Origin: Vicugna vicugna
Taxonomy: Eukaryota
Direction of reading: 5' to 3'
Assembly: GCA_013265495.1 (NCBI GenBank)
Contig: MU057651.1
Span: 2,458,948 to 2,522,947, forward strand
Length of the DNA stretch: 64,000 nucleotides
Below the pieces are notes generated by a model. The model searched no databases and was not told the origin of the DNA. It was given only the letters and a program-made list of their open reading frames with translations. Below, piece after piece: positions 30,508 through 60,797 of this stretch (position 1 is the first letter of the stretch; every line of letters starts with the position of its first letter). The position numbers and the translations under genes are program-made.

Positions 30508-30689
30508 CCGGGTGGCTCCCCGTGTCCCCCGCCCCCGGAGTCCTCCCCGGGGGTCCCCCAGCCCCGGCGACCTCCCCCGGGTCCCCGCGCCGGGTGGCTC
30601 CCCGTGTCCCCTGCCCCCGGAGCCCTCCCCGGGGGTCCCCCAGCCCCGGCGACCTCCCCCGGGTCCCCGCGCCGGGTGGCTCCCCGCGT
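30508..30689. repeat. GC-rich 82-bp minisatellite, array A (about 2.2 units)
   Basis: Unit ccgggtggctccccgtgtcccccgcccccggagtcctcccc...gggtccccgcg starts at 30508, 30590 and 30672. Confidence 0.9.
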
Positions 30690-32188
30690 CCGGCCCCCGC
30701 CGCCCCCGAGGGGCTGAGGGGAGGAGGGCCGCCCGCCCGGACGCCCCCGCCGCTCAGGCCGGCCTCCGCACGGCGGGGGCACCGCGGGGACACACCCCGG
30801 CCCCTCCGCGCCCCCAGCCCCCGCCTCCGGCCCTCCACCCCGCTCGCCCTCCCTCCCCGCTGACCTGCTGCTTCCGAAAAGCGCGGGGCCCCGTGTGCGC
30901 CTGCGCGCCGGGACGGGCTCGGGCCCGCGCCGTGCGTGCGTGCGTGCGCGCGCGCGAGAGAGAGAGCGTGAGGCGGGGCGTGCGTGCGCGCGCCAGGGGC
31001 GGGGCCGGGGGCAGGGCCCCGCCCAGGCCGGACCCCGCGGGCCCGCTCTCCCCCGGGGAGGTCGGTCACGGACACGCAGCTTAAGGCGGACTCAGGCACT
31101 GGAGTTCCTGCGCTGCCCGAATGCTGAGTGCGGCCGCTCAGACGCGCCCCGGACCGCAGGCACGCTCCTGGGCCCGCGTGCACACTCGTGGTCCGCGTGC
31201 ACACCCCCGGCCCCGCATTGCAGACCCCTGTCCCCGCGTGCACGCCCCTGGCCCGCAACCCCGGGTCCCGCGCCGGGTGGCTCCCCGTGTCCCCCGCCCC
31301 CGGCGACCTCCCCCGGGTCCCGCGCCGGCTGGCTCCCAGTGTCCCCCGCCCCCGGAGTCCTCCCCGGGGGTCCCCCAGCCCCGGCGACCTCCCCCGGGTC
31401 CCGCGCCGGCTGGCTCCCCGCGTCCCCCGGGTCCCCGCGCCGGGTGGCTCCCCGTGTCCCCCGCCCCCGGAGTCCTCCCCGGGGGTCCCCCAGCCCCGGC
31501 GACCTCCCCCGGGTCCCCGCGCCGGGTGGCTCCCCGTGTCCCCCGCCCCCGGAGTCCTCCCCGGGGGTCCCCCAGCCCCGGCGACCTCCCCCGGGTCCCG
31601 CGCCGGGTGGCTCCCAGCGTCCGGCCCCCGCCGCCCCCGAGGGGCTGAGGGGAGGAGGGCCGCCCGCCCGGACGCCCCCGCCGCTCAGGCCGGCCTCCGC
31701 ACGGCGGGGGCACCGCGGGGACACACCCCGGCCCCTCCGCGCCCCCAGCCCCCGCCTCCGGCCCTCCACCCCGCTCGCCCTCCCTCCCCGCTGACCTGCT
31801 GCTTCCGAAAAGCGCGGGGCCCCGTGTGCGCCTGCGCGCGGGGAGGGGCTCGGGCCCGCGCCGTGCGTGCGTGCGCGCGCGCGCGAGAGAGAGAGAGCGT
31901 GAGGCGGGGCGTGCGTGCGCGCGCCAGGGGCGGGGCCGGGGGCAGGGCCCCGCCCAGGCCGGACCCCGCGGGCCCGCTCTCCCCCGGGGAGGTCGGTCAC
32001 GGACACGCAGCTTAAGGCGGACTCAGGCACTGGAGTTCCTGCGCTGCCCGAATGCTGAGTGCGGCCGCTCAGACGCGCCCCGGACCGCAGGCACGCTCCT
32101 GGGCCCGCGTGCACACTCGTGGTCCGCGTGCACACCCCCGGCCCCGCATTGCAGACCCCTGTCCCCGCGTGCACGCCCCTGGCCCGCA
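30690..32188. repeat. Direct tandem duplication: 30690-31257 recurs at 31621-32188 (offset 931)
   Basis: Near-identical 568-bp blocks differing by only a few substitutions. Confidence 0.95.
31259..31620. repeat. Same 82-bp minisatellite, array B (full plus internally deleted units)
   Basis: Units start at 31440, 31522 and 31603; shortened or variant units at about 31273, 31325 and 31406. Confidence 0.9.
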
Positions 32189-49071: not shown

Positions 49072-49175
49072 TTAGGGTTAGGGTCGGGGTCAGGGTCAGG
49101 CTCAGGGTTATGGGTTAGGGTCGGGGTCAGGGTTGGGGTTAGGGGTTAGGGTCAAGGTTAGGGGTTAGGGTTAGG
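49072..49175 (+). repeat. Degenerate interstitial telomere-like repeat (TTAGGG/TCAGGG/TCGGGG/TTGGGG)
   Basis: About 17 hexamer-type units in DDC intron 8. Confidence 0.9.
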
Positions 49176-59386: not shown

Positions 59387-59809
<423 letters not shown>

Positions 59810-60398
59810 TCATTCATCCCCTCATCCTGCAGACTCCTCTTTGGAGGGGGAGGTACTGGGCCATACTGGGGGCATTTTTCACCCACTGGTTTGAATTCTC
59901 CAGCAGCAGTGAGCTCCTGGATGGCACACCCACAGGCGCACCTGGACACCCGGGCTCAGATCCGGGCGCTGCCTCCGGCTGGGGGGCCTCGGGCAGCGGG
60001 GGGCCAAGTTCAGTCAGTGAACGCTCCATGGGTGGGGTCTGGGGGAAAGGAGCCAGGGCAGGGCAGCCCCACAGGATGGCAGTCCATCCTCTCTCAGGGA
60101 CCCTCAGGGAAGAAATCCAACGGTGACTGAAGTCGCCACCCTCTGCCTGCAGCCCCACCCACACGGTCACACGCTGGACCCCGTCCTGGGGCCCAGGGCA
60201 GGTGCAGGTGGGGTGGACACAGCCGGGCACGGCGGCCTCACGGCACATTGGCTTTCTTTTCAACTTGATCTACCATGTTCTCCTCTTTAATGCGGGCGTC
60301 TGTCTTAGTCATACCCTTAGTCTGTCCTTGCATTTGAAATGGTGCTGCCCAAACTGGTTTGATTTTGCTCTGATGTAACATAAAACATTGCACTCGCG

Positions 60399-60476
60399 GG
60401 GGCTGGATGGGGCTGGATGGGGCTGGATGGGTCTGGATGGGGCTGGACGGGGCTGGATGGGGCTGGATGGGTCTGG
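60399..60476. repeat. 10-bp tandem repeat (GGGCTGGATG)n, about 8 units
   Basis: Directly visible; abuts the broken end of DDC exon 5. Confidence 0.95.
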
Positions 60477-60486
60477 CAGGGTCATG

Positions 60487-60576
60487 CGTCAGCCCCGGGG
60501 AGGCGGTCTGCAGGCATCGTATGACTTTGGTCCGAGCGGCCAGCAGGGCCACCAGCGTGGCTTCACTGGCGCTTCC
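60487..60576 (-). CDS. DDC: DOPA decarboxylase exon 5, 5' 30 codons only (3' end and donor absent)
   Basis: Acceptor tttag| at 60577; GSASEATLVALLAARTKVIRCLQTASPGLT, then the sequence runs into a tandem repeat. Confidence 0.9.
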
Positions 60577-60797
60577 CTAAAGCAAAGAGAGGGTCCGAAA
60601 TGAGCCTCCAAGGAGTCAGGATCTCGCCTTGGGAGACGTGACCTGGGGTCTCCGTGTTTTTCTTAGAAGATGAATCCGAAATCACAGCGGTCACTCTCCT
60701 GAACACCTGGATTGCCTCTTGGGCTCTTAGAGTTGTTTCAAAGTCACTTTGTCTGTTTTTCGTTTTTTGGTTTTTTTTAATGGAGGTAACCAGGGGA

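Follow-up and report, generated by a model that had tools for sequence, protein, structure and literature searches.

Does the vicuña (Vicugna vicugna) carry a copy of DDC, the gene for AADC, in which the end of exon 5 has been lost, or is it instead the genome assembly which has lost it? The question is raised by 64,000 nucleotides of contig MU057651.1 (assembly GCA_013265495.1), here 'the window', in which exon 5 begins normally and then breaks off beside a short tandem repeat. That the gene is a mammalian DDC/AADC orthologue follows from its sequence identity and exon structure, and it is found beside FIGNL1. The break, it will be argued, quite probably is a mis-join made during assembly, the animal's own DDC being normal, with the odds in this case resting on indirect evidence.

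The Exon 5 Remnant and Its Join

DDC is encoded by the minus strand of the window. As an earlier note on this DNA had described, exon 5 starts normally at 60576, following an AG acceptor (ttag|G). From there to 60487 come 30 codons, i.e., the exon 5 remnant, which align to residues 146–175 of human and pig AADC, and which show 2–3 differences from three camel proteins (90% identity over these 30 codons in the case of camel protein P0006). After these matching codons come CA plus TGACCCTG and then a tandem array, 60476–60399, a switch which the earlier note had correctly placed at about 60485. The join itself can be positioned at approximately 60486–60484, as the first two letters of the junction segment, CATGACCCTG (60477–60486, minus strand), could also begin codon 176.

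Gone from the window sequence are at least the last 43 bases of exon 5 along with its splice donor. At the expected donor position is found AGC|CCCATC rather than a GT, as previously noted. A functional AADC requires a complete 135-bp exon 5 with its donor, that is, one including residues 176–190, and the window does not contain such an exon. Nor is the missing coding piece found anywhere else in the window, which also is as had been claimed. A degenerate pattern for residues 176–190, with 3 mismatches allowed, yields 0 matches over the 64 kb, and a six-frame search yields a best score of 26 versus a self score of 71. As found in the C. ferus protein, the missing residues read QAAVMEKLVAYASDQ. 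The window contains 0 Ns.

An Array with Native-Looking Edges

The array (60399–60476, minus strand, hence G-rich on the plus strand) is a 10-bp minisatellite within intron 5, with a consensus of CCAGCCCCAT, 7.8 copies, and 92% matches. The junction segment described above is, at one edge, a decayed, in-register unit of this same repeat (6/10 identity to a unit). A second decayed, in-register unit, also with 6/10 identity to the consensus, is present at the far edge (60387–60396, minus strand). With such units at both edges, the join therefore falls just outside of a native-looking array. Judged from sequence, and on modest evidence, the array may then be viewed as an old intron-5 minisatellite which has kept both of its natural edges.

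Two ideas as to what happened here can be considered in this light. The first is that the repeat has replaced the end of the exon, which is how the break had initially been described. Given a decayed unit at each edge, this is improbable, and insertion of a repeat in place of the exon end thus was rejected; the rejection is a weak one, as 6/10 identity to an array unit is reached by 5.5% of 1433 nearby background 10-mers, and this is per edge. The second is an assembly 'collapse' at the repeat. Of this claim the first half stands, that is, assembly error is the leading explanation, and the ranking of assembly error above a recent deletion allele agrees with the odds arrived at here. The mechanism of collapse is, by contrast, probably wrong. 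In a collapse, what is removed is repeat sequence from between two copies; here the loss is of unique exon sequence, and both array edges look natural. The position of the join also is not that of a tandem-repeat collapse, as it lies not between two copies but instead outside of the array, past its decayed edge unit. A better fit would be a mis-join over sequence with poor coverage.

The array also is the longest of the 51 G4-type motifs in the window (60398–60481, 84 bases, plus strand; the next longest is 48) as well as the third strongest of its 75-base G4Hunter windows (1.84). The join, that is, adjoins sequence which is at once GC-rich, repeated, and of G4 type, as is seen with false losses in assemblies, though such a location is not specific to artefacts.

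The favoured mis-join would involve a short series of steps. Intron 5 would natively carry a G-rich 10-bp minisatellite which, as predicted from its motif, can fold into G-quadruplexes. Around this G-rich tract short-read coverage, and with it contigs, would fail. The assembler would then join a contig ending in codon 176 directly onto the edge of the array. Dropped as a consequence would be the at least 43 last exon bases, the donor, and an intron stretch of indefinite length.

What Could Be Made from the Broken Exon

Read-through from exon 5 reaches a TGA at 60240–60238 (minus strand) after 112 codons, in agreement with a previously indicated stop at 60238. A donor before that stop, AGG|GTATGA (60309–60317, minus strand; last exon base 60315), had been put forward as the best nearby but out of phase with exon 6. 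It is indeed the best-scoring open donor, and the 262-bp exon that it would define is out of phase. What had been overlooked is a second open donor, ATG|GTAGAT (60268–60276, minus strand; last exon base 60274), which is in frame and which would define a 303-bp exon. Scored with a rough textbook matrix, this donor reaches 4.9, with 8 real DDC donors ranging from 4.5 to 11.1. Its use would swap 15 residues for 71 unrelated ones.

The existence of an in-frame, open donor at 60274 lends something to the idea of a species-wide change, that is, of a lineage which has lost or rebuilt exon 5 and which is without AADC, uses this donor, or makes use of another copy of the gene. So too does in-frame skipping of exon 5 in four pig database models (P0011, P0012, P0013, and P0020). 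Such a change is nevertheless very improbable indeed, as a first consideration due to what would be replaced. Residues 183–190 are 99–100% conserved at 7 of 8 positions (L183, V184, Y186, S188, D189, and Q190 at 1.00 and A185 at 0.99) across 188 proteins, these being the ones among 333 which have the segment between two anchors, with isoforms and close relatives counted. In a structure model of warthog DDC, residues 176–182 are helix and 183–188 are strand (local pLDDT of 84–86 over 161–190; the model is poor overall, with a mean pLDDT of 55.8, and is used for 161–190 only). The lost piece, as so modelled, is a conserved helix plus core strand preceding His192. In addition, the unique portion of the read-through peptide is carried by no protein among 1.84 billion representatives, a weak negative, with the 2 matches obtained both being low-complexity ones to its repeat portion, from proteins otherwise unrelated.

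His192, which follows exon 5, stacks on PLP, and the activity of H192A is undetectable (PMC8003434), which supports the role that the earlier note had given to this residue. The phosphate of PLP is contacted by Ala148 (PMC8003434), which skipping of the whole of exon 5 would remove as well. Given this conservation, the helix and strand, and these roles of His192 and Ala148, any enzyme made from the broken exon should be inactive, and this is the prediction for read-through, for either cryptic donor, and for exon 5 skipping alike. Rescue specifically by the in-frame donor at 60274 was rejected, the residues replaced there being highly conserved.

The Rest of DDC and Its Camelid Relatives

Exons 6–14 are intact, as had been reported, with AG/GT boundaries and a single open frame extending to the usual stop. 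On the minus strand these are exon 6 (59567–59710), which contains His192, followed by exons 7 (56526–56460), 8 (52833–52739), 9 (48946–48879), 10 (47338–47262), 11 (46388–46369), 12 (44610–44512), 13 (42800–42699), and 14 (40390–40190), the last coding exon, with its normal stop. Exons 2–4 lie outside of the window, and statements as to gene integrity cover exons 6–14. H192, D271, K303, and Y332 all are present. Exon 6 is 100% identical to that of C. ferus P0006, exons 6–14 differ from Bactrian camel P0306 at 4 of 290 residues, and 4 of the 67 residues of the last coding exon differ from Camelus (94% identity), which suggests a South American species.

Among the window residues which differ from P0306, S390 is found in 81/129 of the comparable proteins, R439 in 20/129, Q419 in 1/129, and R432 in 0/129. 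Within the last coding exon, R432 stands where 128/129 comparable proteins have K, and Q419 stands where most have L. With S390 and R439 common elsewhere and Q419 and R432 rare, constraint is imperfect, yet there is no sign of its collapse. Decay as a unitary pseudogene was rejected, with exons 6–14 displaying neither further lesions nor relaxed constraint. This lack of decay also speaks against a species-wide change.

The Camelus proteins P0006 (C. ferus), P0143 (C. dromedarius), and P0306 (C. bactrianus) are orthologues of the window gene but, unlike it, possess the full end of exon 5. The anchor-to-anchor spacing across that end is the same in 122/122 proteins having both anchors (among 270). 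No South American camelid DDC protein is named among the matches listed, in which clusters are represented in part (e.g., 15 of 336), and in JGI metagenome contigs two intron patterns, intended to detect DNA of camelid hosts, gave 0 matches.

All four of the camel DDC models seen are irregular in some manner: P0143 is without exon 6, with intron-derived residues where exon 6 should be; P0006 and P0121 are without the last exon; and P0306 has a 40-residue insertion. The irregularities near exon 6 may reflect the same difficult region. The C. ferus models P0006 and P0121 include an additional exon whose counterpart in the window is a segment of intron 6 (57706–57617, minus strand; 83% match), and which is either a pseudo-exon of camelids or a quirk of annotation. 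This shared intronic segment, like the identity of exon 6 to that of P0006, marks the DNA as camelid.

Sequencing Runs across the Join

For comparison with sequencing runs, 44 words were sampled from the 371 of a 401-base stretch, 60300–60700, and the share of these words held was obtained for each run. With this stretch held in its flanks only, a share of 0.69 is predicted, versus 0.92 with all but the junction and 0.87 with all but the array interior; the model assumes random sampling of the 371 words, and the predicted shares may shift if sampling was otherwise. RNA rows, with shares of 0.20 and 0.04, were left out.

The full stretch is held by 0 of the 24 runs listed, and at least half of the sampled words are held by 14. 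Of these main holders, 13 are at 0.64–0.70, and these 13 come from 6 studies with 5 organism labels. The commonest value, 28/44, has a P(≤28) of 0.27 with flanks only and of 1.6e-5 without the array interior, the other two models both giving <2e-5. Differences among runs X2–X14 are of 1–3 words and too small to use. Run X1 stands apart at 0.82, i.e., 36/44 words or 8 above the commonest value, and belongs to a study separate from the six of the other 13 runs. Its 36/44 has a P of 0.096 with the junction versus 0.144 without, so that a carrier fits almost as well as does a non-carrier. X1 could moreover be the source sample itself, and hence not independent.

With 13 of 14 runs at flank level, either the common form is something other than the broken one or short-read contigs as a rule fail here. 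Both outcomes suit assembly error, with a rare allele also being compatible. A fixed, species-wide form would predict a share of roughly 0.79–0.87, which these 13 runs do not reach, though a technical loss of the block from contigs would also lower the share.

Mis-Join or Deletion Allele

An alternative to a mis-join is a real deletion allele, present as one copy in the sequenced animal and chosen by the assembler. The route would be a break near the G-rich array, followed by end joining with 0–2 bases of microhomology (CA), and resulting in a null product, whether by read-through to the stop, by use of a cryptic donor, or by exon 5 being skipped in frame. This is judged to be unlikely. In its favour, the join is clean, N-free, and beside the window's longest G4 motif; the higher share of X1 is compatible with its holding the junction; and an allele which is young would leave exons 6–14 intact, as is observed. 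AADC deficiency furthermore is recessive (PMC8003434), so that a carrier presumably would be healthy. On the other side, none of the runs listed holds the full stretch, and nulls of any one given essential gene should be much rarer than are false exon losses from draft assemblies (PMC9516821).

The polarity of the loss is relevant as well. In dog-1 mutant C. elegans, polymerase theta-mediated G4 deletions keep the 3' flank, with the other junction 50–300 bp to the 5' side (PMC4654259). The DDC join resembles these deletions in that one junction is only a few bases away from a G4 motif, but its polarity is the opposite: On the G-rich strand it keeps the motif, i.e., the array, and loses the 3' flank (PMC4654259). 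A dog-1-type event, with 3' flank kept and both motif and 5' flank lost, thus is not what is seen. It is possible that a second G4 lies inside of the lost DDC piece, which would alter this comparison. Since G-rich repeats also promote real rearrangements, and since the polarity rule derives from helicase-mutant worms, G4 location and polarity discriminate only partly.

A mis-join is favoured, then, by the maintenance of exons 6–14, by camels with a full exon 5, and by spacing that is kept in every protein with both anchors. It is favoured as well by the lack of any listed run with the whole stretch and by the flank-level shares of nearly all main holders. The array being the longest G4 motif, in combination with an under-representation of G4 motifs in Illumina assemblies (PMC7757076), points in the same direction, as does loss from the side opposite to that of in vivo G4 deletions (PMC4654259). 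False losses, lastly, are frequent in older assemblies (PMC9516821), where across four species approximately 26–60% of genes were affected, with missing exons among the commonest kinds. AADC deficiency, for its part, is a severe disease from which children often die (PMC9121088), and null alleles therefore should be rare. Counting against a mis-join are the N-free window, the compatibility of X1 with the junction, and the lack, among the matches listed, of a South American camelid DDC sequence having the whole of exon 5; a long-read origin of the assembly would weaken this reading also.

Known Systems and Implications

Artefacts of the kind considered most likely here are already known. In the false gene losses which Kim et al. 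2022 (PMC9516821) describe for draft vertebrate assemblies, a coding exon likewise lacks a part, at a GC-rich, repeated stretch of a gene that otherwise is conserved. In those cases the error was proven by a better assembly along with mapped reads, whereas the DDC join is known from the window sequence and is without an N gap. If the break is real, then its closest likeness instead is to the alleles of human AADC deficiency (PMC8003434, PMC9121088), which likewise are loss-of-function in the same single-copy gene, with residues next to His192 here removed. Among the papers returned by literature searches there is no report of a camelid DDC lesion, with DDC being mentioned a single time in PMC6598621, in its Table 4. 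Nor is there a paper on lethality of DDC knockout, which is not relied upon here, and passages of PMC4102824, PMC13692727, and PMC8989526 hold nothing pertinent to the exon 5 question.

As an error, the break serves only as a warning: Screens for gene loss would call DDC broken in this genome. The doubtful prospect that it instead is a real null allele, which arose next to the G-rich minisatellite of intron 5 and which segregates among South American camelids, with X1 as either a second carrier or the source, would have rather more consequence. A domestic or wild camelid would then have a naturally occurring null for the only enzyme which makes dopamine and serotonin from their precursors. Carriers of AADC deficiency would thereby exist naturally in a large animal, and the allele would be a candidate recessive cause of neonatal loss. 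Typable by a single PCR, it could be useful in breeding tests and might provide a large-animal model of this disease, for which gene therapy is now in use. Were reads to confirm the junction, the novelty would lie in a null allele of an already known disease gene rather than in a new kind of system.

Other Features of the Window

The alpaca DDC has been placed on chromosome 36, a chromosome which in that reference is divided over three scaffolds (PMC6598621). Neighbouring DDC in the window is an open and intact ORF of 704 codons (28572–26461, minus strand) with AAA and Vps4_C domains, i.e., an AAA-ATPase, which is called FIGNL1-like here from the gene order of Table 4 of PMC6598621. In a CpG island between this ORF and DDC is a tandem duplicate, 30508–31257 and 31440–32188 (offset of 932 bases), the copies of which are 98.9% identical, with 7 mismatches and 1 gap in 750 bases. 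The duplicated block is 82% GC, has an 82-bp repeat within it, and either has been duplicated falsely or represents a real duplication of recent origin. Inside of 30508–32188 also are the two G4Hunter windows which are stronger than that of the exon 5 array. The three strongest G4-type tracts thereby underlie both of the window's oddities, the exon 5 join and the tandem duplicate, and, given the under-representation of such motifs in Illumina assemblies (PMC7757076), one technical cause for both fits. Real instability, common to the two, also fits these tracts. Within intron 8 there is, lastly, a telomere-like TTAGGG array (49072–49175; 16.8 copies, 78% matches), which lies approximately 130 bases from the exon 9 acceptor.
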